From contig CAVUSO010000001.1 of NCBI GenBank assembly GCA_963744145.1, forward strand, positions 32,001-96,000: DNA of 64,000 nt, written 5' to 3'. Source of the DNA: an uncultured cyanobacterium. Lineage in GTDB: Bacteria > Cyanobacteriota > Cyanobacteriia > Cyanobacteriales > CAWUOF01. The position numbers and the translations under genes were made by a program. The notes below the pieces were generated by a model, which worked only from the letters and a program-made list of their open reading frames with translations, was not told where the DNA came from and did no database searches. Shown here in pieces: positions 5,348 through 48,009 of the stretch; within the stretch, counting starts at the first letter, position 1; every line of letters begins with the position of its first letter.

Positions 5348-5433
5348 GGTAACCTTCCTGGAGGAACACATATACCAAGGAAATTTTGCCAAGATTTGGT
5401 ATGATCCAGTAGAGTTTGATCTCTTTAATTCAG

Positions 5434-7911: not shown

Positions 7912-7924
7912 ACAAAGTACCGCG

Positions 7925-8083
7925 ATGATGATTAACTTTACTGATGGTACTCAATTTAGTGCTAAACTTAATCTTAGCAATACCCCTAGGGGTGACTTGG
8001 TCGGAGTATTTAAGGAAAATAAAAATTGCCCCAATGCGATCGCTAAACAATCAAACCTAGGAGAAGTTCAAAATGACTACTAA
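7925..8083 (+). pseudogene. Collapsed relic of an FHA gene (52-codon ORF)
   Basis: Translates MMINFTDGTQFSAKLN..., matching IQFTDGTQFSVKSN of copy 3 (DNA similar to 5881-5916). Confidence 0.55.
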
Positions 8084-10637: not shown

Positions 10638-10756
10638 GAAACTTAATCCCAGATTTACAAAAAATTCATGAAATCTGGAAATGACAGGTTTACAATTGAA
10701 GAAGAAGTAAAGATAATTGTCATAGTAGGACGTTAAAAATAGCTAGGTTAACAATC

Positions 10757-11563: not shown

Positions 11564-11672
11564 TTCTAGTCTTAATAATTGGAAGCATTTTGCTGGTTTA
11601 TGTAGTGCTAGTGAGCAAGATCCTCGCAGTACAATAGCCAGCAATATATTTTTTCTCCTGTGCGAAAATAAT

Positions 11673-12812: not shown

Positions 12813-12974
12813 AGTCGCTAAATCTTGCTCCTAAATTAGTTGATAAACTGGCATGATTTTAACTGTTTTATTATTCTTTTTCTATTTTTTACTCTGAATT
12901 TATCTAGGATTTAAAATCCTTTCTATTTCCCTGCTCTAATCAGAATTAAGAAACCATCACAATTCCATCTAGCT

Positions 12975-13034
12975 GTTTGTAGTGAAAACTTTAATTTCTA
13001 TGGACAAATTAAAACTAAAATCCTCACTACAAAC
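12975..13034. repeat. REP-like inverted repeat (GTAG-type); related copy at 53183-53226
   Basis: GTTTGTAGTGA ... TCACTACAAAC, 11-bp perfect arms; the 53183 copy is GTTCGTAGTAAGC ... GCTTACTACAAAC. Confidence 0.6.
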
Positions 13035-13130
13035 TGGTTTGCTTGCTGATCTGTCTAACTATTTTCCAAATTATCTCAAAGATAGAGTTACTGGGAAAAC
13101 AAGTTTAGTCTGATTTACTATTTTGGGATT

Positions 13131-13679
13131 TTAGACAGTCATAATGTCTTTTTCTTTTTCAGCTAATAATTCATCAATTTTAGCAGTGTATTTGTTGGTT
13201 AGTTTTTGCAGTTTATCTTGCTGATCCCGTGCTTCATCTTCGGAAATTTCGGCACTTTTTTCCTCTTTGCGGATTGTATCTAAACTGTCACGACGGATAT
13301 TCCGAATGGAAACTTTGCCTTCTTCAGCATATTTGGCCACAATTTTTCCTAACTCTTTGCGCCGATCGCTAGTTAAAGGGGGAATATTTAAACGGATAAT
13401 TGCACCATCGTTACTTGGTGTAAGCCCAACATCGGACAAGGAAATTGCCTTTTCAATTATATTCAAACTTTGGCGATCGTAAGGTTGAATGGTAATCGTG
13501 CTAGCATCTGGGGTACTAATATTTGCTAGAGCTTTGAGAGCAGTTGGAACACCATAGTAGTCTACCAATACCTTATCAAGTAGGGAAGCATTGGCCCGAC
13601 CTGTGCGAACGGTATTGAAAGCCCTTTGGGTAGCCTCAACGGCTTTTTGCATAGTAGATTCAATTTCAGCTAATTTCAC
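13131..13679 (-). CDS. frr: Ribosome recycling factor
   Basis: RTGRAN, VDYYG, IRNIRRD motifs; follows pyrH; GTG start at 13679 likelier than 13694. Confidence 0.97.
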
Positions 13680-29554: not shown

Positions 29555-29750
29555 ACTGGATTACCCCCATTAAATCTTGCTATGATTACTTTTTTAAAAT
29601 TATGGCACCAAAATTTCCAGGAATGAACCCTGATTAGCGAATATCCGGCTTGATGGTCAGAAGTCCACTATGGGCTAATTGCTGGACTCGCGCGATCGCC
29701 GGAGTGAAACGATTGAGCCTAATATTTAATCAGAACATTGCCAACAGTAC

Positions 29751-32030
29751 CTAAAACAGCACAAAATTAGCAGCAGTTAGATTACTGGCTGACAATCCAT
29801 ATATTGTAGATAAAAGTTGTCCAGTCGCGGTGACAGTAATATTAGTATTAGAGCCATTACCAGTAATTGTGAGTTGATTGAAAGTTAACCCACCCGATAG
29901 TCCCAAGAAATCTCGACCGGGTTGAAAATTGATGATATTAGAAACACCTTTATTAATCGCAAAGGTGTCATTACCAATCCCACCGATTAAGGTATCATTA
30001 CCCAGGTCACCACTCAAGAAATCACTTCCAGTTCCAGCATAGATAATATCGTTACCTTGACCACCAAAGATAGTATTATTACCAGTACCACCATAGATGA
30101 CATCATTACCTTGATTACCGTAGAGTAAACTATTACCGGAACCACCATAAATCGTATCTGCTCCCGACCCTCCTAAAATCTTGTCGTTACCAATTCCACC
30201 ATAAATCAAGTCGTTTCCTAAGTCTCCTGACAGGTAATCATTCCCTGTACCACCAACGAGAGTGTCATCACCTTTCCCACCAAACATGGTGTTATTTCCT
30301 ACTCCTCCATAGAGGATGTCATTGTCTTGATTTCCGTAGAGGAAATTATTTCCTGAGTCTGCAAATAGGGTATCGCTTCCAGAACCACCGAGAATGGTGT
30401 CGTTCCCTTGACCACCATAGATCAGGTCATTCCCTAAGTCTCCAGATAGATAGTCATTCCCTTGATTCCCATAGAGAATATCGTTCCCTTGACCACCATA
30501 AAGAATGTCATTACCTAGACCACCAAATAAGGTATCGTTACCTTGATTTCCATAGATGACATCGTTACCATTACCACCGTAAATTAAATCATTTCCTGCT
30601 AAAGGAAAGGCAATATTAATTCCGGATGGTAAGGTGGCTACATCATCATTAGCGGTGAAATAGATGGCATTATCGATCGCCACGGTGTTACCATAAACCC
30701 CATTACTATAAATCCCATTACTAAAAGTTGATTGGTTGCCAGAAAAAGTAGTATTAGTAATATTGAGAGAGGTAGGATTTATCAATTGCAATCCACCTCC
30801 TTGATTAGTAGTAGTATTATTAGTAATAGTGCTATTTTGAATAGTCACGTTATTATTATTGTATCCGTAAATTCCACCACTAGCACTGGAACTTGAATTA
30901 TTAGTAATGGTAGTATTTTGAATAGTTACTGCTCCCTGATTGAAACTCGTTGGACCGACGTAACCGTGATTACTATCGATGCGACTATTAGTAATTAAAG
31001 TATTAGTTTTATAGGTATCTATTATGCTACTATTAAGAGCAAAATTGTTGGTAAATACAGAATTATTAATGGTTAAACTTGATTGCTGGTCAGTAGCAAT
31101 GCAGCAATAATTATTAGTAAATGTACTATTAATAATGCTAGTCTGACCACCACCACTACTAGCAATTAATGGCAGGTTATAGTCAATGCGATTGTTAATA
31201 AGCTGACAGTTTTGAATTGTAAAATTATTGCCACCGATAAAACCACGGGAATTAGTAATAGTCAGATTGTTAGCAGTAAAATTGATGTTTGATTGCACAG
31301 AAAAAATAAAGTCCGCATTATTACTTAAGGTAACTAATCCACCCCCATCAATGGTTGTATTAGCCGCGATCGCGATCTTACTCAGAGTAAGAGTTACAGG
31401 TGCTCCACCACTATTAAAAGTTACATTACCACCACCTACTAATGCAGCTCGTAATGCTGCTTCGGTGATACTTTGTGGTGTCCCATTCCCAACTACACCA
31501 GCAGCGACAAATTGATATTGTTTTCTGGTTGCTAATGTAAAAGCTAAAGGGGATTTAACTTTACCTATTCTTAACCCTAAATCCCAATTACCACCTTGGT
31601 CTGCACTACCTGTTAAATTAGTAGAAGCAGCGATATTTGTTTGGGTTATTTCACTGAGCTTTTTTACAAATGCTCTACCTATTCCTTGTCCTATTTTACA
31701 ACCATAAAGGAATAGCTCTCCATGGTTAACCAGATAATTTTGCCAACTACTTAAGTATAGATAGTATTTAGTTAATGTGTCTAAAGTAAGTTCAGTATTA
31801 CCTAAATAAATACAACCAGGACTACCGTGGGAAAAAATATGGAGTGAGGTGACTTTTCCTTGAGTATGAGCAAAGTTGGCTAATTCCCGAGTAATTTGCT
31901 CGATCCCATCTTGGTGACGATCGAGAATAATCACAGAAGTGTTGGGTAAAATCCCTGTAGCTAGAACGGGAATATCATCGATCGCACCATCAATGAATAA
32001 TAGCGATCGGGAATTAATGAGGTTAATCAT
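29751..32030 (-). CDS. DUF4347 + beta-helix + RTX surface protein, copy 4
   Basis: Same architecture and C-terminal [11 protein letters not shown]; divergent beta-helix. Confidence 0.9.
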
Positions 32031-32218
32031 CTATTAAAAGTCGTTGTAGTAGTGGGGAGGGAGCGCGATCGGGTTGGAGAATTCAAGGATTAGGAGTGAG
32101 TCTATCATTTAATCACAACATTTACAGCAGCAACTAAAAGATCACAAAATCTGTAATAGTCATTATTCTACCATCACAAAAGGAGAAATATCGGTGTAAA
32201 AAGTCGCGATAATTTATA

Positions 32219-32482
32219 CGCTCATTTGATGCTCATTTGATGGGTGTCAATAGGTTTTGGAGAAATATTGTATAAACCATATAAACCCTAGAACAACCTA
32301 ATATCAATGTTTTCACGTCGCACCGTATAATTTTTCTACGCTCATCTATGAAATTTTCTACGCTCACCTATGAAATTTTCTACACTCACCTATGAAATTT
32401 TCTATATTTTCTTTGCTGGTATTATAGAAAATATTCAAGGGTTTAGACATTTTCTATAATTGCTTTTGAGAAAGAAAAATTA
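32219..32482 (-). repeat. ~260-bp non-coding element, copy B, with 3 x 22-bp tandem repeat
   Basis: Inverted homolog of 23478-23728; TTTTCTACGCTCACCTATGAAA-like unit three times at 32332-32397. Confidence 0.8.
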
Positions 32483-32731
32483 AGCTGCTAATGATAGTAA
32501 GTATTTCTGCTGGGTAGTTTTAGTGATTAATTTTAGTAAAAGTCAACTTTCCTGGGGGTGCGATCGCAGGTTAATTTTGTCCGGAGGATTGCAGAAAACC
32601 TAATTGATAACCATAAGCAAAAAAATATACTACCTAGATCAAAAATCTCTAGGTAGTGATATTTAATATTAGTTAGATAGACTGATAACAGCCAGTTCCC
32701 CTCAAGCAACCGAGCTGAACATATCGGAAAT

Positions 32732-35479
32732 TCAAAAGCCAAAGATTAGATCACCTATGGTATTAGTTGGTAATGATGGCAACAATGACGTTAGTGCTGA
32801 TTGGTTAATGGTAAACTGGGTAGAATTGCCGTTTTTAGTGTACTCCACATTGGACATTAGTGCGATATCTTGCTCTTGAGTTAAAGTGATTTGGATATCA
32901 TTGGGAGAAGGTTCCCTAGAAACAGATGCAGGAATACCGACCGAATTATTCAAAGAACCCACAAGCAGATAATTGCTAACCGTATGGTTTAAGCTATCCG
33001 AACTGTGATTTGACTGATCAAAACTGATCCCACTAATAGGTACACCATTAGTGCTACTAGCGATGAGAGTATCCTGATTATTACCATGGAGAATCCCAGA
33101 GATATAAGCGTGGGAATTACTCATACCTGTAAAAGCATCGAATTGCAAATAGGGATCGATCACATCAACGTTAATATCAGTGGGAGAAGAAGATGAGGGT
33201 GTTGATGGAGTTGGTAATGGGGATGGTAATGGGGATGGTAATGGGGATGGGGATGGAGATGGTAATGGGGATGGTAATGGGGATGGAGATGGGGATGGTA
33301 ATGGGGATGGAGATGGTAATGGGGATGGGGATGGAGATGGGGATGGTAATGGGGATGGAGATGGGGATGGTAATGGTAATGGGGATGGAGATGGAGATGG
33401 AGATGGAGATATGATATTATTAAACTCAAAAGCTCCAATATCAATTTTTCCGTCAGTACGTCCTAATCCTCTTTCATCCGTAGTTAGACCACTAACATTT
33501 TGACCAGCATTAATTGCAGGACTACCTGGTAATAATGCTTGAGTCAGAACACCACCACCATTATCTTGTAATGGACCAAGTAGCGGATCAGCAATTAAGA
33601 TAGAAGCGGTGGCATTATTGTCTGTTGGTGTACTAGAAGATGTTAATTTAGCTGGATATTGAATATTACCTCCACCATCAATTAATTCGTTGGTAGTTTC
33701 TTGTTTAATCTGCGAAGGATTACCAGCAGTATTATTATCGAAAATGGTATTTTCGACAGTCACGGGTTGATTATTATTGTTAGCGATCGCTCCTCCAATA
33801 TATCCAGCCTGATTATTGGAAATTGTCGTATTAGTTATATTCGTAGCATTATTACTCTGATTATTTAGAGCAATTGCACCACCGACTCCATTCCCACTAC
33901 CATCATCTGCTTTATTGCCATAAAAAGTAGAATTAGTAATATTTACGGGGGCATTTTCTCCGACTAATAATCCACCACCTTGAGTTAAAGCTGTGTTATT
34001 AGCAATCGTGCTATTTTGGATTGTTAGTTGCGCGTTTCCTTCTCTAATTCCTCCTCCAAGAGCATTTCCATTACTATCTTTAATTACATTATTATTAGTA
34101 ATGGTAGAACCTTGAACCGTAATTTGATCAGCACCATATCCAAATAGAAATGCTCCTCCTCCTTGTCCTCCTCCTTTATTACCATTGATCTGAGTATTAG
34201 TAATAACAATGCTACCTCCCGGTCCATTATTCGGACTGTTCAGACTTGCACCGTCAGTATAGATCGCACCCCCAAATCCTTGACCATAAGCAAGACCTTG
34301 GGTTGAATCGTTATTAGTAAATACAGAACCACTAATATTCAACCCACTTAAAACACTATTAATTGCTCCACCATTGTTACCTTTATTATTAGTAAATGTG
34401 CTATTTGTTATCGTAGTTTGACTACCAGACCAAATGGTAATTGCTCCAGCACCTCGTTCAGTATTTCCTGATGCTTGATTGCCAGTAAATGTACTGTTTG
34501 TAATGGTATTATTAGAGGAATTACCGCAAGTAATAGCACCACCTGATGTCCCCGTATTGTTAATAAATTGACAATTTTGGACAACTAATTTGCCACTACT
34601 TCCTGAATAAATTGCCCCACCATCATTACTATCGCCCTGGTTACTACTATTACCATTAGTAATAGTCATATTGCTAACCGTAAAATTGGTCAGGTCTTGC
34701 ACATTAAAAACGCGGTTAGCATTATTACCATTGAGCGTAACTAATCCACCTCCATCAATAGTAGTGTCATTAGCGATCGTGAGTTGATTACTCAGAGTAA
34801 TAGTAACAGGTGCTCCACCTGTATTAAAGGTAACTGTTCCACCACCTGCTAATGCAGCTCTTAATGCTGCTTCAGTGACACTCGATGCTGTACCATTACC
34901 GACGACACCACCAGCAATAGATTTATACTCTGCTCTAGCTGCTTGAGTAAATGCTAAGGGAGATGTAACTTGACCAATAGTAAATTCTAAATCCCAGTTA
35001 CCACCTTGGTCAGTGCTACCAGTTAAATTAGCAGAAGCAGCGATATTGGTCTGGGTTAATTCACTTAATTTTTGGACAAATGCTGCACCTACTCCTCTGG
35101 CAATTTCACAGCCATATAATAGGATATCGGCACCCTTAACTAGACATTTTTGCCACTGGGTGAAAGCATTGTGGTAAGTAGCTAAAGTATCCCAATTCAG
35201 TTGAGTATTTCCCAGATAGATACATCCAGGACTACCATGGGAAAAAATATGAATAGATGTTAATTTTCCCCACTTAGTAGCAAAGTTTGCCAATTCTTTA
35301 GTAATTTGCTCAATCCCATCTTGGTGACCATCAAGTACAATGACTTCAGTTTCTGGTAAAACTCCTGTAGTAAGAACCTGAATCTCATCGACAGCACCAT
35401 CAATAAAAACTAATCCTCTTGCTTGGGAATTTGGTTGAAAAGATTGAGAATTAGCGTGACTACTATAATAGTTGACCAT
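32732..35479 (-). CDS. DUF4347 + polymorphic beta-helix + choice-of-anchor Q-like domain + Pro/Ser linker protein
   Basis: DUF4347 motifs; GGAI/F..N repeats; LGPLQDNGG...[12 protein letters not shown]...D.RG..R...DIGAFE; (PS/PL)n tract; no RTX. Confidence 0.88.
33203..33410. repeat. Hexamer tandem repeat encoding the Pro/Ser linker
   Basis: Runs of GGGGAT/GGAGAT/GGTAAT on the + strand. Confidence 0.9.
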
Positions 35480-36150: not shown

Positions 36151-36483
36151 ATGCACGAGTTGGGAATTACCCATAATATAGTAGCGATCGCGGTTGAACA
36201 TAGTCGAGGAGCTAGGGTCAAACGAGTCTGTCTAGAAATTGGTAAACTGACCGCAATTCTGCCCGATTCGATTCGTTTCTGTTTTGATATCTGTTGTGAG
36301 GGAACTTTACTCGCAGGAGCTAAGTTAGAAATTATCGAAATTCCTGGATTAGCTCGTTGTCGTCATTGTCAAACGGAGATTCCCTTAGAAATACCCTATA
36401 GTATTTGTCCCGCTTGCGATCGGAGTGATTTAGAAATTTTGCAGGGCGAAGAGCTAAAAATTAAGGAACTGGAGATAGAATAA
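36151..36483 (+). CDS. hypA: Hydrogenase nickel metallochaperone HypA
   Basis: MHE start, two CxxC motifs, GEEL.I. Confidence 0.96.
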   Translation: MHELGITHNIVAIAVEHSRGARVKRVCLEIGKLTAILPDSIRFCFDICCEGTLLAGAKLEIIEIPGLARCRHCQTEIPLEIPYSICPACDRSDLEILQGEELKIKELEIE

Positions 36484-36485
36484 TT

Positions 36486-37328
36486 ATGTGCGTAACTTGT
36501 GGCTGTTCAGATGATGCTCATCCTACTATCACTAACTCTCAAACTGGAGAAGTTAGCGAAGTTATGACTCACGAACATACTCATGTTCTCGCTGATGGGA
36601 CAGTGATTTCTCATACCCATCACCCTGAACATAGCGATCGCTCTCATCCCCCAGAACCAGCTCATGTCCACGCCCAAATCCACGGTACAACTATTACCTT
36701 AGAACAAAATATTTTAGCTAAAAATGACTTATTAGCTGCTCAAAATCGCGGTTGGTTTAAAGGACGCAATATTCTAGCACTTAATTTAGTTAGTTCCCCT
36801 GGATCAGGAAAAACTACTTTACTTACCAGGACAATTCAAGATTTACAAAACCAAACCACTATTAGTGTAATTGAAGGAGATCAAGCTACAACTAATGATG
36901 CCGATCGCATTAAAGCAACAGGTTGTCAAGTCATCCAAATTAATACAGGGACAGGTTGTCACCTCGATGCAGAAATGGTAGAAAGAGGATTACAAGCACT
37001 TAATCCTCCCCTCAATTCGATTGTGATGATTGAAAATGTCGGTAACTTAGTCTGTCCAGCTTTATTTGATTTAGGAGAAAGAGCGAAAGTAGTCATTCTC
37101 TCAGTAACCGAAGGAGAAGATAAACCGATTAAATATCCTCAGATGTTTCATGCTAGTCAGGTAATGATTATTAATAAGATTGATCTTTTACCTTATGTAC
37201 AGTTTGATGTTGAGCGTTGTATCGAATATGCACATAAAGTTAACCCTCGGTTACAAATATTTCAGGTATCAGCTACCAAGGGAACTGGGTTAAATAATTG
37301 GTATGATTGGTTATTAAATCCCCATTAA
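36486..37328 (+). CDS. hypB: Hydrogenase nickel incorporation GTPase HypB
   Basis: MCVTCGC, His-rich tract, SSPGSGKT, GCHLDA, ENVGNLVCP, NKID. Confidence 0.97.
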   Translation: MCVTCGCSDDAHPTITNSQTGEVSEVMTHEHTHVLADGTVISHTHHPEHSDRSHPPEPAHVHAQIHGTTITLEQNILAKNDLLAAQNRGWFKGRNILALNLVSSPGSGKTTLLTRTIQDLQNQTTISVIEGDQATTNDADRIKATGCQVIQINTGTGCHLDAEMVERGLQALNPPLNSIVMIENVGNLVCPALFDLGERAKVVILSVTEGEDKPIKYPQMFHASQVMIINKIDLLPYVQFDVERCIEYAHKVNPRLQIFQVSATKGTGLNNWYDWLLNPH

Positions 37329-38279: not shown

Positions 38280-38702
38280 TTAGTTAGCCTTGACGTAGAT
38301 CAAAGACCCATCAGGACTATCAATGATCAGTTCTTGATCGGTGATATTATAGGACGTAGCTGATTCTAATGCGCGGAAATATTTTTCCTCCTGCCCCAGA
38401 TCTAGGTTTGAGCAGAACATTTTTGTTGAGGATATACCTGAAAATTTGATTGAGTATATACTAAAACTAAAAGAGGCAAAGTATCGGTTGCAACCTGCGC
38501 TACCCGAAACTGTTGGATCGGAGGAAGTATCAAATTTAGCCGTAATTTGAGTAGATGGCAAAACTGGACTTCCTTCTAAGGATTTAAGCCGCCAACTACC
38601 TTGGAGTTCTGCTGCGTAACTGGGGCTAGTAAGTGCTAAAATCAAGCTACATACTGCGAGGGTCAAAATGATAGCCTTGCGAATAAATTTAAAACTTTTC
38701 AT
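38280..38702 (-). CDS. META domain (HslJ-like) protein with signal peptide
   Basis: W.L..L.G, VSGSAGCNRY, STKMFC. Confidence 0.88.
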   Translation of the reverse strand: MKSFKFIRKAIILTLAVCSLILALTSPSYAAELQGSWRLKSLEGSPVLPSTQITAKFDTSSDPTVSGSAGCNRYFASFSFSIYSIKFSGISSTKMFCSNLDLGQEEKYFRALESATSYNITDQELIIDSPDGSLIYVKAN

Positions 38703-39310
38703 TGTTTGATTTTACCTTTACGGAGTGACCAGAGCGGCAAAAGTTATGCTCTGGAATAATTTGGGGGTTATATGACATAAAATTGGTAGGGGCAGTTTCA
38801 CCAATCAATTCTGTCACCAACAGATAACTATTATAAACCTGCCCTGGCCTAACAGATTAACCTCAGATTAAGTGCAATTTCATGTGATTGGTATTAAATT
38901 TACTAATATAATAGGTCTAGTAAAAGCTCTCGATCGATATCGGGAAGAGTGGTAAACCTATTATAGGAAGATAAAACTCGGGATTCTCCGATTTGAATAC
39001 TGGGCGATCGCGCTTGATTTCCTCTTGCCCATAATAATCCATAAATTACTGGAAAAATGAGATAATACTTGGTTTAAATTAATCAGATTTAGTAATAATT
39101 TATCAGTTTCTGAATTACTTCCTGGGCACAATATTCTGGCGTTAATCGCATTCATTACTGGATGATTAAGGCTAGTTGTGAGCGATCGCTATTCTAACTG
39201 CTAGTTTGGCCTGATGAGTTGGATAGTTACCACGGGATATTTTCCAAAAATTTATTGAGGGAGCAGCATTTATTGTAAAATTAATCTCTATAAATATTTT
39301 AAACATTCCT

Positions 39311-42300
39311 ATGAGTGATTCTCAAGTCCCAAAGACCCAATTTTATGACGCCTTTATTTCCTATGGTCGGGCCGATAGTAAGGCTTTTGCTGCCAAACTG
39401 AAAGAACGACTACAGAGTCAAAATCTTGAAGTTTGGTTGGATCTTGAGGAAATTCCCTTCGGGGTTGATTTTCAAAATCAAATAAATGATGGGATCACCA
39501 AAGCTGATAACTTTTTGTTTCTAATTTCGCCCCATTCCGTCAATTCTGCCTATTGTCGCAAAGAAATTGACCTAGCGATCGAATTAAACAAACGAATATA
39601 TCCCATCTGGCACGTTGCGGAAATTGATCAGGAAACGTGGCAAGAACGTAATCCTGGTAAATCTGAAGCTGAATGGCTGAGGTATAAGGAAACGGGACAA
39701 CATTCTACTGTTCCCGGTAAAAATCCCAATATGCACCCTAAAATCGGCGAAATTAATTGGCTCCCTGGTGAAAAAGATAAACAAAGAGATGGTGAAAAAA
39801 GGGATGATTTTGAGGAGAGATTGTTCACATTATTAGATACCGAATTAATAAATATAGTGCGTCGCCATCAAGACTATGTGCGACAACATACAGTTTTGTT
39901 GAATCAAGCTCTTTACTGGAAAGATCAGCAGAAACAAACTCGTTATTTATTAATTGGAGAAGAACGGCAAAAAGCCGAAAAATGGTTAAAAGAGAGAAAA
40001 GAGAGGTTTAAGGAAAAAAAACTAGCGCCCGGCGAACCTACATTGCTGCATTGTGAGTTTATTTGCGAGAGTATCAAGAATGCGAATAACTTGATGACTC
40101 AGGTGTTTCTCTCCTATGCGGAAGTTGATATTTCTACAATGCTTCAAGTTAGAGAGATCCTGTTACGAGAAAGTATTACAGTTTGGACAAATCAGACAGA
40201 TATTCAAACTGGAGAAGTATTTGAGGAGGCAATAGAGCGGGGAATTGAACAAGCGGATAACATTGTCTATTTGATTTCGATCGACGCACTAACATCTTAT
40301 TACTGTCAGAAAGAAATTGACTATGCTCTCTCGTTGAATAAAAGGATTATTCCTTTGTTAATTAAACCAACAGATTTAGAACAAATTCCATCAGTAATTA
40401 GAGGATTACAATTTATTGACTTTACTGATAATCAGACCGAGGCAGATTTACGTCAAGACTTGGATGATTTGCTTAACGTTTTACGAGAAGAGGAGAGTTA
40501 TTACGAAGAACATAAAATGCTGTTAAGCAAGGCGTTGAAATGGGAAGAACAGAAACGCAACCCGAGTATTTTATTACGGGGTTACAATTTGCGCCATGCA
40601 GAAACTTGGTTGAAGGGAGCGGAACGGAAAACTCAACATCAGCCAACAACCTTACAGAAAGAGTTTATTAATGAAAGTTTGCGCCAACCACCTGCCGCAT
40701 CTCTAGACCTATTTATTTCCTATTCAAGATCAGATTCCGATCTAGCCCGTGCATTAAATGATGAGTTGCAGATCCGAGGGAAGACAACTTGGTTTGACCA
40801 AGAGAGTATCGCTTCAGGAGCAGATTTTCAGAAAGAGATTTATGCGGGAATTGAGAGTGCTGATAATTTTCTATTTATTTTGTCCCCGCGTTCTATTAAT
40901 TCGACCTACTGTGCTGATGAGGTGGAATATGCAGCTAAACTTAACAAACGATTTATTACGATCTTACATCAAGATGTGAATACTATTGAATTACATCCAG
41001 AGTTAGCTAAGGTGCAGTGGATTGATTTTCGGCAAAAAGAAGGGGAATTTTCTGCTAATGTTAATCAATTATTAAGAACCTTAGACACTGACCGAGAATA
41101 TATTCAAAATCATACTAAATGGCTACGTCGGGCGATCGAATGGGAAAACCAAGGTAAGAATAATGATTTGCTGCTCAGAGGTAGTGAGTTGGCGATCGCA
41201 GATGACTGGTTGAAGCAAGCAAATCAAGGCAAAAAGCAACCCCAAGTCACGGAATTGCAAACCAACTTTATTGAATCTAGTCGCAATGCGATCGAAGCGA
41301 TCGCTAAACAGGAAAAACAGCAACAGGCTAAAGCTCAGGCACAATATGCTTTATCTCTATTACATCCAAGGGAAGACAAATTGGATGCTTTAATTACCGC
41401 CATTAAGGCTGCCAAGATTATTCAAAAAGAAAATATATCTGAAATAGCGGTGACAGCAGCTTTGGCAAACTCAGTTTTTGATGTTAAGGAACACAACCGT
41501 TTGGTAAACCATCGTGATGGGGTCTTGAGCGTAAGTTTCAGCCCTGATCGTCAAACCTTGGTCTCCAGTAGTTTTGACAAGACGATTAAACTATGGGATG
41601 TCAAGACAGGGCAGGCACTTCGCACTTTTTCTGGCCATAGTAATGCGGTCCATAGCGTAGGTTTCAGCCCCGATGGTCAAACCTTGGCCTCCGGTAGTGC
41701 AGACAAGACGATCAAACTATGGGATGTCAAAACAGGGCAGGCACTTCTCACTCTTTCTGGTCATAGTGATTGTGTCTATAGCGTAGGTTTCAGCCCCGAT
41801 GGTCAAACTTTGGCCTCCGGTAGTGCAGACAAGACGATCAAACTATGGGATGTCAAGACAGGACAGGAACTTCGCACTCTCTCTGGCCATAGTAATTCGG
41901 TCTTTAGCGTAAGTTTCAGTCCCGATGGTCAAACCTTGGCCTCCGGTAGTAGAGACAAGACGATCAAACTATGGGATGTTAAGACAGTTCAGACACTTCG
42001 CCCTCTGATGTTGCTGATTCAAAATATGAATCGATGGCTAAAACCCTCAATGGCTACAAAATTAGGCCAAATCATCCGATCATTCAGCAACACCCGCACT
42101 CTCTCTGGCCATAGTAATTCGGTCTTTAGCGTAAGTTTCAGTCCCGATGGTCATACCTTGGCCTCCGGTAGTGCAGACAAGACGATCAAACTATGGGAGG
42201 TAAAGACAGGTCAGGCACTTCACACTCTCTCTGGTCATAGTGAACAGGTCTTGAGCGTAAGTTTCAGCCCCGATGGTCAAACCTTGGTCTCTGGTAGTTG

Positions 42301-44341
42301 GGACAAGACGATCAAACTATGGGAGGTAAAGACAGGTCAGGCACTTCACACTCTCTCTGGTCATAGTGAACAGGTCTTGAGCGTAAGTTTCAGCCCCGAT
42401 GGTCAAACCTTGGCCTCCGGTAGTAGGGACAAGATGATCAAACTATGGGAGGTAAAGATAGGGAAGGAATTTCGCCCTCTTTCTGGTCATAGTAATACGG
42501 TCTTGAGCGTAAGTTTCAGCCCCGATGGTCAAACCTTGGCCTCCGGTAGTGCAGACAAGACGATCAAACTATGGGATGTCAAGACAGGAAAGAAACTTCG
42601 CACTCTTTCTGGCCATAGTAATTTTGTCAGGAGCGTAAGTTTCAGCCCCGATGGTCAAACCTTGGCCTCTGGTAGTGATGACAAGACAATCAAACTATGG
42701 GAGGTAAAGACAGGAAAGGAACTTCGCACTCTCTCTGGCCATAGTAAGGAGGTCTATAGTATAAGTTTCAGCCCCGATGGTCAAACCTTGGCCTCCGGGA
42801 GTAGGGACAAGACGATCAAACTATGGGATGTCAAGACAGGAAAGAAACTTCGCACTCTCTCTGGCCATAGTAATACGGTCATGAGCGTAAGTTTCAGCCC
42901 CGATGGTCAAACCTTGGTCTCCGGTAGTGCAGACAAGACGATCAAACTATGGGATGTCAAGACAGGAAAGAAACTTCGCACTCTCTCTGGTCATAGTGGA
43001 TGGGTCATGAGCGTAAGTTTCAGCCCCGACGGTCAAACCTTGGCCTCCGCTAGTAGAGACAAGACGCTCAAACTATGGGATGCCAAGACAGGAAAGGAAC
43101 TTCGCACTCTCTCTGGCCATAGTAATCACATCTGGAGCGTAAATTTCAGTCCCGATGGTCAAACTTTGGCCTCCGCTAGTAGAGACAAGACGCTCAAACT
43201 ATGGGATGTCAAGACAGGAAAGGAACTTCGCACTCTCTCTGGCCATAATGATTGGGTCATAAGCGTAAGTTTCAGCTCCGATGGTCAAACTTTGGCCTCC
43301 GGGAGTAGGGACAAGACGCTCAAACGATGGGATGTCAAGACAGGGCAGGAACTTCGCCCTCTCTCTGGTCATAGTAATCACGTCTGGAGCGTAAGTTTCA
43401 GCCCCGATGGTCAAACCTTGGCCTCCGGGAGTAGGGACTATACCATCAAACGATGGGATGTCAAGACAGGGCAGGAACTTCGCCCTCTCTCTGGTCATAG
43501 TAATCACGTTAGGAGCGTAAGTTTCAGCCCCGATGGTCAAGCCTTGGCCTCTGGTAGTTATGACAAGACGATCAAACTATGGGATGTCAAGACCGGGCAG
43601 GCACTTCTCACTCTCTCTGACCATAATGATTGGGTCATAAGCGTAAGTTTCAGCTCCGATGGTCAAACTTTGGCCTCCGGGAGTAGGGACTATACCATCA
43701 AACTATGGGATGTCAAGACAGGAAAGAAACTTCGCACTCTCTCTGGCCATAGTAATACGGTCAATAGCGTAAGTTTCAGTCCCGATGGTCAAACCTTGGC
43801 CTCCGGTAGTTATGACAAGACGATCAAACTATGGGATGTCAAGACCGGGCAGGCACTTCTCACTCTTTCTGGTCATAGTGATTGTGTCTATAGCGTAGGT
43901 TTCAGCCCCGATGGTCAAACCTTGGCCTCTGGTAGTGAGGACAATCGGATCAAACTATGGGATGTCAAGACCGGGCAGGAACTTCGCGCTCTCTCTGGCC
44001 ATAGTTATGGGGTCAGGAGCGTAGGTTTCAGCCCCGATGGTCAAACCTTGGCCTCTGGTAGTGAGGACAATCGGATCAAACTATGGGATGTCAAGACCGG
44101 GCAGGAACTTCGCACTCTCTCTGGCCATAGTTATGGGGTCAATAGCGTAAGTTTCAGCCCCGATGGTCAAATCTTGGCCTCCAGTAGTGAGGACAAAACG
44201 ATCAAACTATGGAAGTTAGTAGAGTTTGATTTAAACCATCTCTTAGAAAGGGGCTGCCATTGGGTACACGCTTATTTACACAATCCTGATTCTGGTTTAG
44301 ACGAGAGTGACAGACATATTTGCGACGATATCAGGTACTGA
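39311..44341 (+). CDS. Triple-TIR protein with 21 WD40 repeats
   Basis: Three (A/V/L)F(I/L)SY...C..E TIR units, each followed by a W....LL.G..L..A..WL helical linker; 21 GH...V.SV.FSPDG..LAS...D..IKLW repeats; no Walker A motif seen. Confidence 0.93.
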   Translation: MSDSQVPKTQFYDAFISYGRADSKAFAAKLKERLQSQNLEVWLDLEEIPFGVDFQNQINDGITKADNFLFLISPHSVNSAYCRKEIDLAIELNKRIYPIWHVAEIDQETWQERNPGKSEAEWLRYKETGQHSTVPGKNPNMHPKIGEINWLPGEKDKQRDGEKRDDFEERLFTLLDTELINIVRRHQDYVRQHTVLLNQALYWKDQQKQTRYLLIGEERQKAEKWLKERKERFKEKKLAPGEPTLLHCEFICESIKNANNLMTQVFLSYAEVDISTMLQVREILLRESITVWTNQTDIQTGEVFEEAIERGIEQADNIVYLISIDALTSYYCQKEIDYALSLNKRIIPLLIKPTDLEQIPSVIRGLQFIDFTDNQTEADLRQDLDDLLNVLREEESYYEEHKMLLSKALKWEEQKRNPSILLRGYNLRHAETWLKGAERKTQHQPTTLQKEFINESLRQPPAASLDLFISYSRSDSDLARALNDELQIRGKTTWFDQESIASGADFQKEIYAGIESADNFLFILSPRSINSTYCADEVEYAAKLNKRFITILHQDVNTIELHPELAKVQWIDFRQKEGEFSANVNQLLRTLDTDREYIQNHTKWLRRAIEWENQGKNNDLLLRGSELAIADDWLKQANQGKKQPQVTELQTNFIESSRNAIEAIAKQEKQQQAKAQAQYALSLLHPREDKLDALITAIKAAKIIQKENISEIAVTAALANSVFDVKEHNRLVNHRDGVLSVSFSPDRQTLVSSSFDKTIKLWDVKTGQALRTFSGHSNAVHSVGFSPDGQTLASGSADKTIKLWDVKTGQALLTLSGHSDCVYSVGFSPDGQTLASGSADKTIKLWDVKTGQELRTLSGHSNSVFSVSFSPDGQTLASGSRDKTIKLWDVKTVQTLRPLMLLIQNMNRWLKPSMATKLGQIIRSFSNTRTLSGHSNSVFSVSFSPDGHTLASGSADKTIKLWEVKTGQALHTLSGHSEQVLSVSFSPDGQTLVSGSWDKTIKLWEVKTGQALHTLSGHSEQVLSVSFSPDGQTLASGSRDKMIKLWEVKIGKEFRPLSGHSNTVLSVSFSPDGQTLASGSADKTIKLWDVKTGKKLRTLSGHSNFVRSVSFSPDGQTLASGSDDKTIKLWEVKTGKELRTLSGHSKEVYSISFSPDGQTLASGSRDKTIKLWDVKTGKKLRTLSGHSNTVMSVSFSPDGQTLVSGSADKTIKLWDVKTGKKLRTLSGHSGWVMSVSFSPDGQTLASASRDKTLKLWDAKTGKELRTLSGHSNHIWSVNFSPDGQTLASASRDKTLKLWDVKTGKELRTLSGHNDWVISVSFSSDGQTLASGSRDKTLKRWDVKTGQELRPLSGHSNHVWSVSFSPDGQTLASGSRDYTIKRWDVKTGQELRPLSGHSNHVRSVSFSPDGQALASGSYDKTIKLWDVKTGQALLTLSDHNDWVISVSFSSDGQTLASGSRDYTIKLWDVKTGKKLRTLSGHSNTVNSVSFSPDGQTLASGSYDKTIKLWDVKTGQALLTLSGHSDCVYSVGFSPDGQTLASGSEDNRIKLWDVKTGQELRALSGHSYGVRSVGFSPDGQTLASGSEDNRIKLWDVKTGQELRTLSGHSYGVNSVSFSPDGQILASSSEDKTIKLWKLVEFDLNHLLERGCHWVHAYLHNPDSGLDESDRHICDDIRY
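41500..44215 (+). repeat. 126-bp tandem repeat array (WD40 units)
   Basis: 21 units near-identical at DNA level apart from a few codons. Confidence 0.95.
42007..42094. mobile_element. 88-bp MITE inserted in-frame in the WD40 array
   Basis: TIR GATGTTGCTGATT / ATTCAGCAACACC (11/13); 8-bp target duplication CGCCCTCT (41999-42006) / CGCACTCT (42095-42102); 96 nt added in total. Confidence 0.85.
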
Positions 44342-44360
44342 CGATATCGGTACTGTTCCT

Positions 44361-46634
44361 ATGAGTGATTCTCTACTCCCAAGTACCCTACTTTACCATG
44401 CGTTTATTTCCTATGGTCGAGCCGATAGTAAGGCTTTTGCTGCCAAACTACAAGAACGACTACAGAGTAATGGTTTTCAAGTTTGGTTTGATTTCAATGA
44501 TATTCCCTTGGGGATTGATTATCAAAATCAGATTGATGATGGGGGGATAACCAAAGCTGATAACTTTCTGTTTCTAATTTCGCCCGATTCCGTTAATTCT
44601 CCCTATTGTCGCCAAGAAATTGAACGAGCCATCGAATTAAAAAAACGCATTATTCCCATCCTGTACGTTAAACAAATTAGTCAGGAAACTTGGCAACAAC
44701 AGAATCCTGGTAAATCTGAAGCTGACTGGCAAATCTATCAGGAAAAGGGATTACATTCTACTGATCCCAAGACCAATCCCAATATGCACTCTGTCATCAG
44801 CAAAATCAATTGGATCTTTGTTCAAGAAGGGATTGATGATTTTGAGAAGGGATTGAGCGCATTAATAGATATATTTCGTCGCCATCAAGACTATGTGCGA
44901 CAACATACAGTTTTGTTGAATCAAGCAATTGACTGGGAACAGCAGCAGAAACAAACTCGTTATTTATTAATTGGGAAAGAACTGCAAACAGCAGAAATAT
45001 GGTTAAAAAAGAGGTTTAAGGAAGAACAAGCACCCTGCGAACCTACATTGCTGCATTGTGAGTTAATTTGCGAGAGTATCAAGAATGCCAATAACTTGAT
45101 GACTCAGGTGTTTCTTTCATATTCGGAAGTAGATCGTTCTACAATGCTTCAAATTCGGGAGAGATTATTACGAGAAGGGATTACGGTTTGGACAAATCAG
45201 ACAGATATCCAAACTGTTGAGGAGGTAATAAATCGGGGAATTACTCAAGCGGATAATGTGGTCTATTTGATTTCGACCGATGCACTGACATCTCATGACT
45301 GTCAGAAAGAAATTGACTATGCTCTCTCGTTGAATAAAAGAATTATTCCTTTGTTAATTAAACCAATAGATTTAGAACAAATTCCACCAACAATAAAAGG
45401 ATTACAACGGATTAACTTTACTGACAATCAGACTGAGGTGGATTTACGTCAGGATTTAGTGGATGATTTGCTCAAGGTTTTACGGGAAGATGCCAGCTAT
45501 TACGAAGAGCATAAAAAGCTGTTATGCAAGGCGTTGAAGTGGGAAAAACAGAACCGCAAACCCAGTATTTTATTGCGGGGTTACAATTTGGGTTACAATT
45601 TGCGCCATGCAGAAATTTGGTTGAAGGGAGGGGAACGGAAAACCCAACATCAGCCGACAAACTTACAAAAAGAGTTTATTAATGAAAGTTTGCTCCAGCC
45701 TCTTGAAGAATCTCTAGATGTATTTATTTCCTACTCTAGGTCTGATTCTGATCTAGCCCGTGCATTAAATGATAAGTTGCAAGTACAAGGAAAGACTACT
45801 TGGTTTGACCAAGAAAGTATTACATCAAAGACGGATTTTCAGCAAGAGATTTATCGGGTAATAGAGAGTGCGGACAATTTTTTGTTTATTTTGTCGCCAC
45901 GTTCTATTAATTCTCCTCACTGTGCTGATGAGTTTGAATATGCAGCTAAACTTAACAAACGATTTATTACTGTATTGCATCAAGATGTGAATACTACTGA
46001 ATTACATCCAGAGTTAGCTAAGATGGAGCGGATTGATTTTACGCAAGGAGCATTTGATGCGAATGTTAATGAATTGTTGAGGATTTTAGACACAGACAGG
46101 GAATATATCAAAAGTCATACTAAATTGCTGCGTCGGGCGATTGAATGGGAAAACCAAGATCAAAATAATTATTTACGGCTAAAAGGTAGTGAGCTTAGGA
46201 GCGCGTATAAATGGTTCCAAAAAACAACTCAAAGTAAAAAGCAACCTCCTGTCACAGAACTACAAACTAAGTTTATTGAGTCTAGTCATAATGCGATCAA
46301 GGAGATTGCTAAAATGGAATACGCACAACGATTCTATACGGCGAAGAAATATTCAAAAAAGATGGTATTCATGATGGTATTCATGATGGTATTATATTAC
46401 GGATTTGTCGGCTTGAACCGTATATTAATGTGGGAAAAAAGTCTCCAAAATCGAATCACACAGCTCAAAAATCAAATCACACAGGATAAAGCTGATAATG
46501 AAAATATGAACAATAACATCAAAAAGATGAACCAAAACATAAACCAACTATGCTCTACATCCGATAATTCTGATTCTGGTTTAGATGAGAAGCAAAGACA
46601 TATTTGCGATGATTACCGTACTGGGAAAAATTAA
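44361..46634 (+). CDS. Triple-TIR paralog with C-terminal hydrophobic helix and coiled coil
   Basis: Colinear with the N-terminal half of the upstream gene; WD40 replaced by MVFMMVFMMVLYYGFVGL plus coiled coil; ATG 44361 matches the paralog start TTCCTATGAGTGATTCTC. Confidence 0.9.
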   Translation: MSDSLLPSTLLYHAFISYGRADSKAFAAKLQERLQSNGFQVWFDFNDIPLGIDYQNQIDDGGITKADNFLFLISPDSVNSPYCRQEIERAIELKKRIIPILYVKQISQETWQQQNPGKSEADWQIYQEKGLHSTDPKTNPNMHSVISKINWIFVQEGIDDFEKGLSALIDIFRRHQDYVRQHTVLLNQAIDWEQQQKQTRYLLIGKELQTAEIWLKKRFKEEQAPCEPTLLHCELICESIKNANNLMTQVFLSYSEVDRSTMLQIRERLLREGITVWTNQTDIQTVEEVINRGITQADNVVYLISTDALTSHDCQKEIDYALSLNKRIIPLLIKPIDLEQIPPTIKGLQRINFTDNQTEVDLRQDLVDDLLKVLREDASYYEEHKKLLCKALKWEKQNRKPSILLRGYNLGYNLRHAEIWLKGGERKTQHQPTNLQKEFINESLLQPLEESLDVFISYSRSDSDLARALNDKLQVQGKTTWFDQESITSKTDFQQEIYRVIESADNFLFILSPRSINSPHCADEFEYAAKLNKRFITVLHQDVNTTELHPELAKMERIDFTQGAFDANVNELLRILDTDREYIKSHTKLLRRAIEWENQDQNNYLRLKGSELRSAYKWFQKTTQSKKQPPVTELQTKFIESSHNAIKEIAKMEYAQRFYTAKKYSKKMVFMMVFMMVLYYGFVGLNRILMWEKSLQNRITQLKNQITQDKADNENMNNNIKKMNQNINQLCSTSDNSDSGLDEKQRHICDDYRTGKN

Positions 46635-47103
46635 TCTAAATTACTTGGAAATATCCCTTATTTGTCAACAGTAATTCTGAGTTAAAGTGATTAATCTGGA
46701 GCAGAGCGATCGCATTTCCCCAACCAGCATAAGCAGTCTTAATTCTGATCACGATCGCCTTCTCCTCAAGATAGCATTTAGCAGCGATCGCGCCTGACTT
46801 CGCGAGAAATTGATTTAGTACGCAAATTCTAGGTTTGAGGATTGCATTACCTGTTAAAGGGTGGAACAGACATAGTTGAATAGAAACACTATTTTCAATG
46901 GTCCATGCTACGCCCTAATTTTTGATCGACAAGTTTGCTCAATATCCTTGATCGCTTTGACCTGAAAGCGATCGCCAAAATGAGATATATAAAATTTATT
47001 TTCTAATTCCTGACACCATTGCGCTAAAAGATATTATGGTACTAATACTAATGCAGATGCCTGAAAATGATCCAGTAAATATTGACGCAGAATTGCACCA
47101 GCT

Positions 47104-48009
47104 TCAATAAACACTATAACTTATTTCCTGAGTCTGGGTCAATTCGTGAGAATTGTTGACAGTTAAATAAAAATATCGTTTAGTTGTTTCTGGTAAAATC
47201 GCTCCAGTTAAGTTAACACCATCAACAGTAGCACCGATTAAAGTAGCTTCACTCAAATCTGCTTCGCTCAGATCTGCCTGACATAATCTCGCCCAATTGA
47301 GATTAGCTCTCATTAAAAAAGCTCCACTCAAATTTGCTCCCGCTAAATCTGCTCCGGTTAGTTGAGCACCTCGCATTTGTGCTTGAGTGAGATTAGCAGA
47401 GATCATATTTGCTCCTTCTAAGTTAGCCCCACTCAGTCTTGCTTCACTCATATTCACTCCATTTAAGTCAACCCCACCCAAATCAATCCCATTCATAAAA
47501 GCTTTACTGAGGTTAACTCCATTTAAAAATGCTCCTAAGAGCATTGCTCCACTGAGTTTAGCGGCACCAAGATTAGACCAATTTAAGTTAGCACCATTCA
47601 AATTGGCTCCCCGCAGATTTGCCGATTGTAAATTAGCACTACATATATTGGTACTCCACAAATTAGCACCTCTGAGGTTAGCTCCACTCAGATTGGCTCC
47701 ACTTAATTTTGCCCTTGGTAATTTAGTTTTTACCATAAAAGTTCCATTCATGACTGCTTTAGTTAAGTCGGTATCAATCAGTTTTGCTTCACCTAATTTC
47801 GCAAAACTTAGGTTTGCCCAATTGAGTGATGCTTCACTGAAATCTGTTTTTGTTAAAAATGCACGACTAAGATTTGCCCCGATTAACTTAGCTTTAGTTA
47901 AATTAACACCAATTAATATCGCTCCACTCAGATCCGCTCCCGTCAGATCCACACCAGTAAAATTTCTTTCTCCCTGTTCGTAATATCTCAGCAAACAACT
48001 AGCTTTCAT
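47104..48009 (-). CDS. Pentapeptide repeat protein
   Basis: Y..GERNF start followed by A(N/D)LxG repeats. Confidence 0.95.
   Translation of the reverse strand: MKASCLLRYYEQGERNFTGVDLTGADLSGAILIGVNLTKAKLIGANLSRAFLTKTDFSEASLNWANLSFAKLGEAKLIDTDLTKAVMNGTFMVKTKLPRAKLSGANLSGANLRGANLWSTNICSANLQSANLRGANLNGANLNWSNLGAAKLSGAMLLGAFLNGVNLSKAFMNGIDLGGVDLNGVNMSEARLSGANLEGANMISANLTQAQMRGAQLTGADLAGANLSGAFLMRANLNWARLCQADLSEADLSEATLIGATVDGVNLTGAILPETTKRYFYLTVNNSHELTQTQEISYSVY

Follow-up and report, generated by a model that had tools for sequence, protein, structure and literature searches.

The TIR-bearing defense sensors known from bacteria have been described as residing in the cytoplasm, where they detect components of phages. 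The described systems closest to the subject of this report are the Thoeris systems, in which a TIR sensor is paired with an effector. It has been reported that operons encoding a TIR protein and a SLATT protein constitute type VII Thoeris, with cyclic ADP-ribose (cADPR) as the signal, type III Thoeris comprises several TIR proteins and a SLOG effector, and the TPR-S domain is a predicted signal reader (10.64898/2025.12.03.692087). In this report, we analyze two adjacent genes in a 64,000-nucleotide stretch of DNA from an uncultured cyanobacterium (contig CAVUSO010000001.1, positions 32,001 to 96,000; hereafter, the window). Gene 1 encodes three TIR domains followed by WD40 repeats, and gene 2, located immediately downstream, encodes three TIR domains and a hydrophobic helix. 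A first-pass annotation, made from the sequence alone, had proposed that they form a dedicated immune system consisting of a WD40 receptor and a membrane-anchored partner. We favor another reading, to which we assign a probability of about 0.6: both genes are derived, tandemly arranged representatives of a large cyanobacterial family of receptors that have several TIR domains and span the membrane once, and their arrangement is a lineage-specific product of gene birth and death, not a conserved two-gene system.

This reading follows from the rearranged plan of the pair: one gene has lost the membrane helix of the family, the other has lost the WD40 array and lacks an upstream region of its own, and the stop codon between them was made by a short duplication. 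The proposal of a dedicated receptor and partner was not supported by comparison with relatives, because the helix is ancestral, the C-terminal part of gene 2 was found in none of the related genomes searched, and gene 2 is under relaxed constraint. We consider the result for the family to be more interesting than that for the pair.

When the triple-TIR part of gene 2 was used to search its own 7.7-Mb genome, 10 matches were found at nine loci. These comprise seven full-length WD40 copies (gene 1 included), gene 2, and one copy split into two open reading frames (ORFs), and 27 of the 28 TIR_2 matches of the genome lie at them. The split copy (G000:C1:5312466-5315175) has ORFs of 389 and 537 amino acids (aa), is broken around TIR2 and the following linker, and has a 3' end and downstream DNA that are the closest match to the 3' end of gene 2. 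In a sample of the class, a family match (E<=1e-60) was present in 61 of 401 genomes and 34 of 170 genera. This class-wide search scored two candidates per genome; counts of tandem and adjacent genes were taken instead from 78 loci fetched from named genome records, in which every ORF was typed with profiles built for this analysis. The named records belong mostly to filamentous or mat-forming cyanobacteria. A protein search gave 1061 matches at E<=1e-3 among 8000 scored candidates, from many cyanobacterial genera, whose C-terminal parts were WD40 (most), CHASE2, Cache, TPR or nothing.

Each TIR domain of the family is joined to a helical linker, and a profile of this linker matched 6100 representative clusters at E<=1e-3 among 1.84 billion proteins. 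The best-scoring 148 clusters contain two to seven linker copies each, and the number per protein among relatives ranges from one to seven. Pfam detected TIR_2 in all 20 of 20 linker clusters scanned (one to seven stretches), most of them with WD40 and one with hemopexin repeats. The longest series of modules that we noted are in P0123-P0126, where six or seven TIR + helical modules occupy one chain of 1426-2208 aa.

In the usual family layout, modules 1, 2 and 3 are followed by a hydrophobic helix (near residue 650-700), then by 14 WD40 units, and finally by a tail, which contains a pair of Cys residues (C-x14-30-C) in 49 of 58 complete WD-bearing relatives. CHASE2 takes the place of WD40, for example, in P0017/L043, L040, L054, L084 and L090, and Cache does so in P0120. 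These multi-TIR membrane receptors apparently represent a widespread and undescribed class. We found no description of the multi-TIR/helix/WD40 architecture in the literature that we searched; the supplementary tables of one report (10.64898/2025.12.03.692087) may list such proteins.

The first-pass annotation had recognized two tandem paralogs with three TIR domains each, a retained glutamate in every one, the lack of an NTPase, and 21 WD40 repeats at the end of gene 1; all of this is borne out. Pfam reports three TIR_2 domains in residues 1-730 of gene 1 (E 3.6e-76) and three in gene 2 (E 2.7e-75), and the two proteins are 72% identical over 686 aa. C..E motifs can be read in the translations of all six domains. 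No Walker A motif was found in either protein in a motif scan, and Pfam reported no NTPase family in gene 1 residues 1-730 or in gene 2. The WD40 repeats of gene 1 are reported by Pfam as 21 stretches. Although the ORF of gene 2 spans 44307-46634 and opens with GTG, alignment with gene 1 and the paralogs places its real start at the ATG at 44361 (757 aa). An AlphaFold2 (AF2) model of gene 2, based on a 72-sequence alignment, has three folded modules, with a mean predicted local distance difference test score (pLDDT) of 86.4 and a predicted template modeling score (pTM) of 0.78.

The membrane helix was sought by position, as a hydrophobic 19-mer after module 3 with a Kyte-Doolittle (KD) value of at least 1.6. 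Of 74 relatives, 72 have it there, as do 135 of 146 representative clusters and six of the seven full-length copies of this genome (KD 2.2-2.9), gene 1 being the exception. The long forms of four Dapis/Okeania relatives had also been candidates for a helix-less plan, but they have a weaker helix that is missed at KD 1.8. The helix is thus an ancestral feature of the family; therefore, gene 1 lost the helix and gene 2 lost the WD40 array, and a membrane anchor is no innovation of gene 2.

Lys and Arg residues in the 15 aa flanking the helix average 5.4 before it and 2.7 after it, and are more numerous before it in 68 of 73 relatives. Given this positive-inside count and the lack of an N-terminal signal sequence, the TIR domains of the family are probably cytoplasmic, with the C-terminal sensor beyond the membrane. 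The position after the helix is held in some members by CHASE2, Cache or hemopexin. These three are established as extracytoplasmic domains.

In gene 1, approximately 33 aa are deleted exactly where the paralogs have their helix, and the most hydrophobic 19-mer of the protein reaches a KD value of only 0.82, which leaves no hydrophobic segment. Its sister paralog, the copy at C1:1.63 Mb, retains the helix. Because it lacks a membrane helix, the gene 1 product should be a soluble, cytoplasmic sensor-TIR protein. Its WD40 array is interrupted only once, by a 96-nucleotide insertion that is not WD-like in any reading frame. We considered that this insertion might be a dispersed repeat, but the copy in gene 1 is the only full-length one in the genome.

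Gene 2 contains a single hydrophobic 19-mer (KD 1.86, residue 668); after it come a long helix, predicted with low confidence, and the family tail. Its DNA resembles that of the family up to approximately 46320, and again from 46566 into the downstream DNA; the approximately 245 nucleotides in between are unlike. For this segment, nothing alike was detected by blastn against the genome, or by tblastn with the post-module regions of the paralogs in any frame, and the anchor has no homology to the family helix. Its hydrophobic run and heptads are built by 12-nucleotide and 21-nucleotide in-frame tandem repeats, located at 46361-46393 (12 nucleotides, 2.8 copies), 46443-46484 (21 nucleotides, 2.0 copies) and 46501-46540 (21 nucleotides, 1.9 copies). 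This composition suggests that the unique tail is new sequence that grew by slippage. The hydrophobic helix that the first-pass annotation saw here is therefore real, and the ending shared with gene 1 is also real, but the latter is a family-wide motif, and the supposed coiled coil is low-complexity sequence made partly of 21-nucleotide repeats. The C-terminal part specific to gene 2 was found in 0 of 40 related genomes and was covered by no protein in a search of 5.8 billion proteins.

The junction between the genes records how they came to be separate. Upstream of gene 1 lies a region conserved in its subfamily, which presumably acts as a promoter. Before the gene 2 ATG, similarity to the family upstream region extends over only about 6 nucleotides, and the gene 1 stop codon is 19 nucleotides from the gene 2 start. 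Lacking the family upstream region, gene 2 would therefore be expressed only by read-through from gene 1. Scanning 38600-47200 for promoter and terminator consensus sequences was uninformative, yielding 20 promoter-like sites versus 18.5 expected and six terminator-like sites versus 6.8 expected.

The gene 1 stop codon (TGA, 44339-44341) straddles the border between the two units of an imperfect tandem duplication. When the first unit is removed in silico, one open frame of 2435 codons runs from 39311 to 46634; when the second is removed, no single open frame results. The second unit is the one that matches normal family tail DNA. The 16-nucleotide duplication created the stop codon that separates the genes. 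In the simplest history, a deletion would have fused two tandem copies, the tail of one meeting the start of the next, and the duplication would later have split them again. A DNA sequencing run (X1) contained a joint between 44333 and 46625 that could have represented a form lacking gene 2. We rejected it as a paralog artefact, because the tail of the C1:2.6 Mb paralog matches both its six bridging letters and its flanks. X1 is possibly derived from the source sample, and so does not provide independent support.

The tree and the substitution rates also set the two genes apart. Gene 1 is the sister of the C1:1.63 Mb copy, and gene 2 forms a long branch beside other paralogs. Ratios of nonsynonymous to synonymous substitution (dN/dS) calculated by the NG86 method were 0.36 for gene 2 versus gene 1 and 0.61 for gene 2 versus the C1:1.63 Mb copy, against 0.12-0.23 for other pairs of paralogs. 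Three-taxon arithmetic on the NG86 values gives branch ratios of approximately 0.14 for gene 1 and 0.57 for gene 2. At alignment columns that are at least 95% conserved in the 81 other sequences, gene 2 departs from the consensus at 15 of 223 positions, the third-highest count among 82 sequences (median 3), and gene 1 at 10 of 222. The departures of gene 2 include a lost loop glycine in TIR2, and in an alignment gene 2 also lacks the near-invariant loop glycine of TIR3. From its branch ratio and its many departures at conserved columns, gene 2 is under relaxed constraint.

These results raise the question of whether gene 2 is a decaying remnant, or pseudogene in the making, left by a recombination in a tandem array that deleted the WD40 array and promoter, such that only gene 1 is functional, if either is. 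Its place in the highest tier of departures, its raised dN/dS, the AT-rich and non-homologous filler where the sensor had been, and the missing upstream region all agree with decay. Also, the family has other broken members: besides the split copy at C1:5.31 Mb, those at L032, L056 and L072 are frameshifted or truncated. However, neutral evolution with a branch dS of approximately 0.2 over 2.3 kb should have introduced stop codons or frameshifts, and there are none; the indels are multiples of three, dN/dS is below 1, and AF2 folds the three modules with high confidence. We consider decay a possible explanation, but a doubtful one. The first-pass annotation had itself named a pairing confined to this genome, together with neutral evolution of gene 2, as grounds for abandoning its proposal. 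Among the genomes searched, the pairing is indeed unique, and constraint on gene 2 is relaxed, but its intact frame and in-frame indels fall short of neutrality.

The WD40 arrays support a role of these domains as a diversifying sensor. The 21 units of gene 1 have a mean pairwise nucleotide identity of 84%, and their variation is concentrated at positions 6, 7, 9 and 25 of the unit, with an entropy of 2.0-3.2 bits, most other positions being near 0. The same four positions lead in most paralogs. Positions 7, 9 and 25 presumably correspond to the known hotspots on the top face of the blades. Fungal NLR proteins exhibit the same pattern of variability in their WD40 arrays. Two additional ORFs that encode only WD40 repeats (364 and 494 aa) adjoin the C1:6.77 Mb paralog (L092:2618-5234; G000:C1, near 6.77 Mb).

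In fold, individual TIR domains of the pair resemble TIR domains of the NADase type. The best sequence match in the Protein Data Bank (PDB) is the Cat1 TIR, in which the Glu of the W-C-x-x-E motif aligns with the TIR3 Glu. In Foldseek comparisons, the best single-domain matches were the SARM1, TRR-2, AbTir and SPARTA TIR domains, with target TM scores of 0.7-0.85.

To characterize the genomic context of the family, we collected, by simple ORF calls, the ORFs lying no more than 5 kb from family genes at 84 loci, and clustered and typed them. A gene for an LSDAT-SLOG, DUF4231/SLATT or patatin protein is present in 27 of the 84, and these effector-bearing loci are spread over many separate clades of the family tree. 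In eight loci, SLOG, patatin and TIR genes follow one another in this order on one strand, and SLATT_1+TPR-S and TPR-S+cyclase proteins are also among the neighbors. Given this recurrence of SLOG, SLATT and patatin genes, the family resembles the part of Thoeris-like systems that senses and produces the signal. The genome under study has a single ORF with LSDAT-SLOG and DUF4231/SLATT domains (G000:C1:2853400-2854770; L096:10402-11748, +; 449 aa), which is divergent from the normal triple-TIR paralog at C1:2.85 Mb and approximately 290 nucleotides from it. Its product is a candidate for a shared effector, and many paralogs may feed this one protein. Another paralog (L095; G000:C1:628150-644631) is adjoined by genes for an 862-aa CHAT (caspase-like)-TPR protein, a DUF5691 protein and a SWIM zinc-finger protein, domains that are typical of other conflict systems.

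We propose the following mechanism. In a normal member, three modules of TIR and helical linker would lie in the cytoplasm, and a single membrane helix would connect them to a C-terminal sensor, usually two seven-blade WD40 propellers with hypervariable top-face positions and sometimes CHASE2 or Cache. Binding of a ligand by the sensor would bring the TIR modules together, and the assembled domains would convert NAD+ into a diffusible signal derived from ADP-ribose. This signal might then be read by a SLOG, SLATT, TPR-S or patatin effector, according to Thoeris-like logic; in this genome, nine family loci would act through one SLOG-SLATT protein, whose gene lies beside another paralog. The pair has departed from this plan: in gene 1, the helix has been lost and the array has grown to 21 repeats, and in gene 2, the WD40 array has been lost and three intact-looking TIR domains remain on a hydrophobic anchor.

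Several points weigh against the reading that we favor. The frame of gene 2 is intact over 757 codons, with every indel in frame and all three Glu residues kept. Also, a metatranscriptome library of another study (X2) contains contigs that are 95-99% identical to gene 2, including 46428-46609 in its unique part; although X2 was made from RNA, its contigs are no proof of transcription, and the parts of the stretch that they do not cover are uninformative. Because of the intact frame, the in-frame indels and these near-identical contigs, gene 2 may have a maintained function to which our reading gives too little weight. That the two genes share one frame across the duplication may point to a functional link, although this would happen by chance in one case in three. 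As for signaling, SLOG, SLATT and patatin genes are lacking within 5 kb at 57 of the 84 family loci, and the 84 represent related genomes and are not independent samples. Within 6 kb of genes 1 and 2, there is no ORF for a SLOG, SLATT, Macro, patatin or TPR-S protein, the neighbors being PdaC-like, META and pentapeptide-repeat genes, and the paralogs in this genome mostly reside among housekeeping genes, not in defense islands. The enzymology of the family and its signaling in trans are deduced from sequence, and the helix and topology are predicted from Kyte-Doolittle hydropathy, the positive-inside count and domain analogy.

Some of these points favor a dedicated pair after all, in which soluble gene 1 protein binds a ligand and hetero-oligomerizes, through TIR-TIR contacts, with a membrane-tethered gene 2 protein that amplifies, localizes or restrains the output. 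The losses are complementary, in that gene 1 lacks only the helix and gene 2 only the sensor; the 19-nucleotide gap and the missing upstream region of gene 2 would build in co-expression; and the frames fuse once the duplication is left out. To these can be added the intact gene 2 ORF with its in-frame indels and three catalytic-type Glu residues, the contigs of its unique tail in the RNA library of the second study, and short triple-TIR-plus-helix forms elsewhere (L027, L055, L064, and the second genes of L067 and L073). However, of these short forms, L064 has no second family gene within 10 kb downstream, and the downstream side of L055 ends at the end of the contig. The gene 2 tail was found neither in the 40 relatives nor in the protein search, gene 1 and gene 2 are not mutual closest paralogs, and gene 2 combines a branch dN/dS of about 0.57 with the loss of conserved loop glycines in TIR2 and TIR3. 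Its anchor and "coiled coil" are AT-rich, built from repeats and unrelated to the family helix. Tandem family arrays are common, occurring at 10 of the 78 fetched loci, and their members mostly have the normal layout, with frames approximately 90-700 nucleotides apart. For example, locus L073 (Dapis sp. BLCC M126; 3585-13252) has three tandem family genes that end in WD40 x14, a helix only (691 aa) and CHASE2 (1087 aa). In none of the 78 loci did we see a long form without the helix followed by a short, anchored one. We therefore consider a dedicated pair unlikely, and a contact between the two gene products would be conjectural. What stands of the sensor/partner proposal is its immune aspect: NTPase-less TIR proteins of an immune type and a WD40 sensor that diversifies. 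The effector genes near 27 of the 84 family loci fit the production of a signal by the TIR domains.

The scarcity of nearby effector genes suggests another possibility, namely that the TIR modules are themselves the effector, which arrests growth by depleting NAD+ in the manner of SARM1-like or abortive-infection NADases, with no separate effector signal. The 57 loci without SLOG, SLATT or patatin genes, to which the locus of genes 1 and 2 belongs, are consistent with this possibility, as is the presence of the NAD+-consuming SARM1 TIR among the closest structures; moreover, several TIR domains in one chain could form an active NADase unaided. Yet SLOG, SLATT and TPR-S signal readers adjoin the family repeatedly and in many clades, and this genome has its one SLOG-SLATT gene next to a family member, so this possibility seems improbable to us.

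It is also conceivable that the family does not act against phages but senses cues from the envelope or from neighboring cells, such as those involved in kin recognition, filament integrity or programmed cell death in multicellular cyanobacteria. A sensor located outside the cytoplasm, as the topology predicts, would not encounter the internal proteins of phages; the genes are scattered among housekeeping loci; and the filamentous or mat-forming habit of most carriers would suit such a role. Nevertheless, known conflict systems use the same effector types (SLATT, patatin and SLOG) and hypervariable repeats of this kind. We consider a role in sensing such cues unlikely.

Finally, a more far-reaching model would treat the family as a bacterial counterpart of Toll-like receptors, with hypervariable WD40 propellers that sense ligands outside the cytoplasm, several cytoplasmic TIR enzymes that respond, and many paralogs converging on one SLOG-SLATT pore by way of a diffusible signal made from NAD+, and the pair as a split receptor in which soluble, 21-blade gene 1 protein is recruited to the membrane by the sensor-less gene 2 anchor. 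The 16-nucleotide duplication would then be a slippage-prone switch between a fused form of 2435 aa and the split form. We regard this combination as speculative and very unlikely to hold in full.

Two features of the surrounding DNA were noted by eye. On the reverse strand of the window, 26762-35479 contains three large paralogous ORFs (930, 759 and 915 aa) with an N-terminal domain common to all; they have beta-helix-like repeats rich in Asn and Thr and GGxGxD-type repeats, and one has a long Pro-Ser-Leu repeat. Two short ORFs at 36151-37328 resemble, by their motifs, the hydrogenase maturation genes hypA and hypB. Immediately downstream of them follow the PdaC-like and META-domain genes flanking gene 1. 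Coordinates of the features of the pair are listed in Table 1.

Table 1. Features of the gene 1/gene 2 locus, in positions of the window
Feature	Position	Strand	Basis and remarks
Gene 1 upstream region, presumed promoter and 5' leader of the subfamily	39166..39310	+	About 145 nucleotides, 93-94% identical to the upstream regions of two paralogs (C1:6.77 Mb, C1:5.31 Mb)
Gene 1, triple-TIR + WD40 x21, without membrane helix, 1676 aa	39311..44341	+	ORF, translation, Pfam
Three modules of gene 1 (TIR_2 + helical linker of about 70-90 aa), approximately residues 1-255, 256-460 and 461-665	39311..41305	+	TIR_2 stretches and linker profile; module borders approximate
Gene 1 linker, deletion of about 33 aa exactly at the membrane-helix site of the paralogs	41306..41500	+	Comparison with paralogs and P0004
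Gene 1 WD40 array, 21 units of exactly 42 aa each (three predicted 7-blade propellers)	41501..44242	+	Pfam WD40 x21; Tandem Repeats Finder (TRF) period 126, 87-88% matches
Non-WD insertion in the gene 1 array, in frame, 96 nucleotides = 32 aa, between blades 4 and 5	42005..42100	+	
Gene 1 C-terminal family tail with two Cys	44243..44338	+	Translation
Imperfect tandem duplication at the gene 1/gene 2 junction, 16 + 15 nucleotides	44324..44354	+	TRF
Gene 2, triple-TIR without WD40, 757 aa	44361..46634	+	Pfam, alignment, AF2, Foldseek
Gene 2-specific segment: hydrophobic helix (about 46362-46430), then heptad-like low-complexity helix	46320..46566	+	33% GC; tandem repeats; AF2 pLDDT 45-75
Gene 2 family tail, stop codon and downstream DNA common to a paralog	46567..46700	+	87% identity over 135 nucleotides to the split copy, C1:5315107-5315241 (3' end + downstream)

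If the predicted topology is true, it would extend Thoeris-type signaling to sensing outside the cytoplasm and provide a prokaryotic parallel to the topology of Toll-like receptors. The ratio of many receptor paralogs to one effector gene suggests a hub-and-spoke immune network. Genes 1 and 2 would represent a natural dissection of the receptor, into a sensor without an anchor and an anchor without a sensor, and are a case of gene splitting by a short duplication.

Among known systems, the family is most usefully compared with Thoeris (a ThsB-type TIR sensor plus an effector activated by the signal), and especially with type VII, which combines a TIR protein with the SLATT protein ThsH, and with type III. 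In common with Thoeris, family members have TIR domains with a catalytic-type Glu, and their loci adjoin genes for SLATT (DUF4231, SLATT_1/3), LSDAT-SLOG, TPR-S and phospholipase proteins. In contrast to Thoeris, they combine three (in relatives, one to seven) TIR + helical modules with a membrane helix and a large repeat sensor in chains of 1400-1700 aa, the locus of genes 1 and 2 has no adjacent effector, and paralogs far outnumber the single SLOG-SLATT gene. The NCBIfam model of the Thoeris type III protein ThcB4 (NF058526) matches the TIR parts at 97.6 and 102.2 bits; because these scores are below its cut-off of 220, the gene 1 and gene 2 proteins are not ThcB4 members. PADLOC matches to SAVED-TIR, Aga_TIR, PDC-S66, retron-TIR and ThsB were likewise rejected as system assignments, because they span the TIR portion only. 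Genes 1 and 2 also differ from TIR-SAVED and TIR-STING, in that the SAVED-TIR match covers only profile positions 15-95 of 404 and Pfam found no SAVED or STING domain.

The individual TIR domains find their best matches in SARM1, AbTir and SPARTA by fold and in Cat1 by sequence, but in those proteins the partners are ARM/SAM, Argonaute or CARF domains, whereas the family has helical linkers, a helix and WD40. NLR/STAND proteins with WD40 (fungal NWD/HNWD and bacterial TIR-NACHT-WD40) similarly have an N-terminal death or signaling domain and near-identical 42-aa repeats that vary at few surface positions. However, genes 1 and 2 encode no NTPase, and the family has a membrane helix in the position of the NTPase. 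Membrane sensors with CHASE2 or Cache are similar in that some family members carry these domains after the helix, but the output of the family is an N-terminal triple TIR, versus a C-terminal cyclase or kinase, and genes 1 and 2 lack these domains. Toll-like receptors share with the family a repeat sensor, one membrane helix and, if the predicted topology holds, a cytoplasmic TIR, and they too form large families of paralogs. They differ in that the family has its TIR domains at the N terminus, WD40 instead of leucine-rich repeats (LRR), and three TIR domains with an NADase-type Glu versus one scaffold TIR. The pair departs further from the plan of Toll-like receptors, since the helix between sensor and TIR is missing: gene 1 has no helix, and gene 2 has no sensor.

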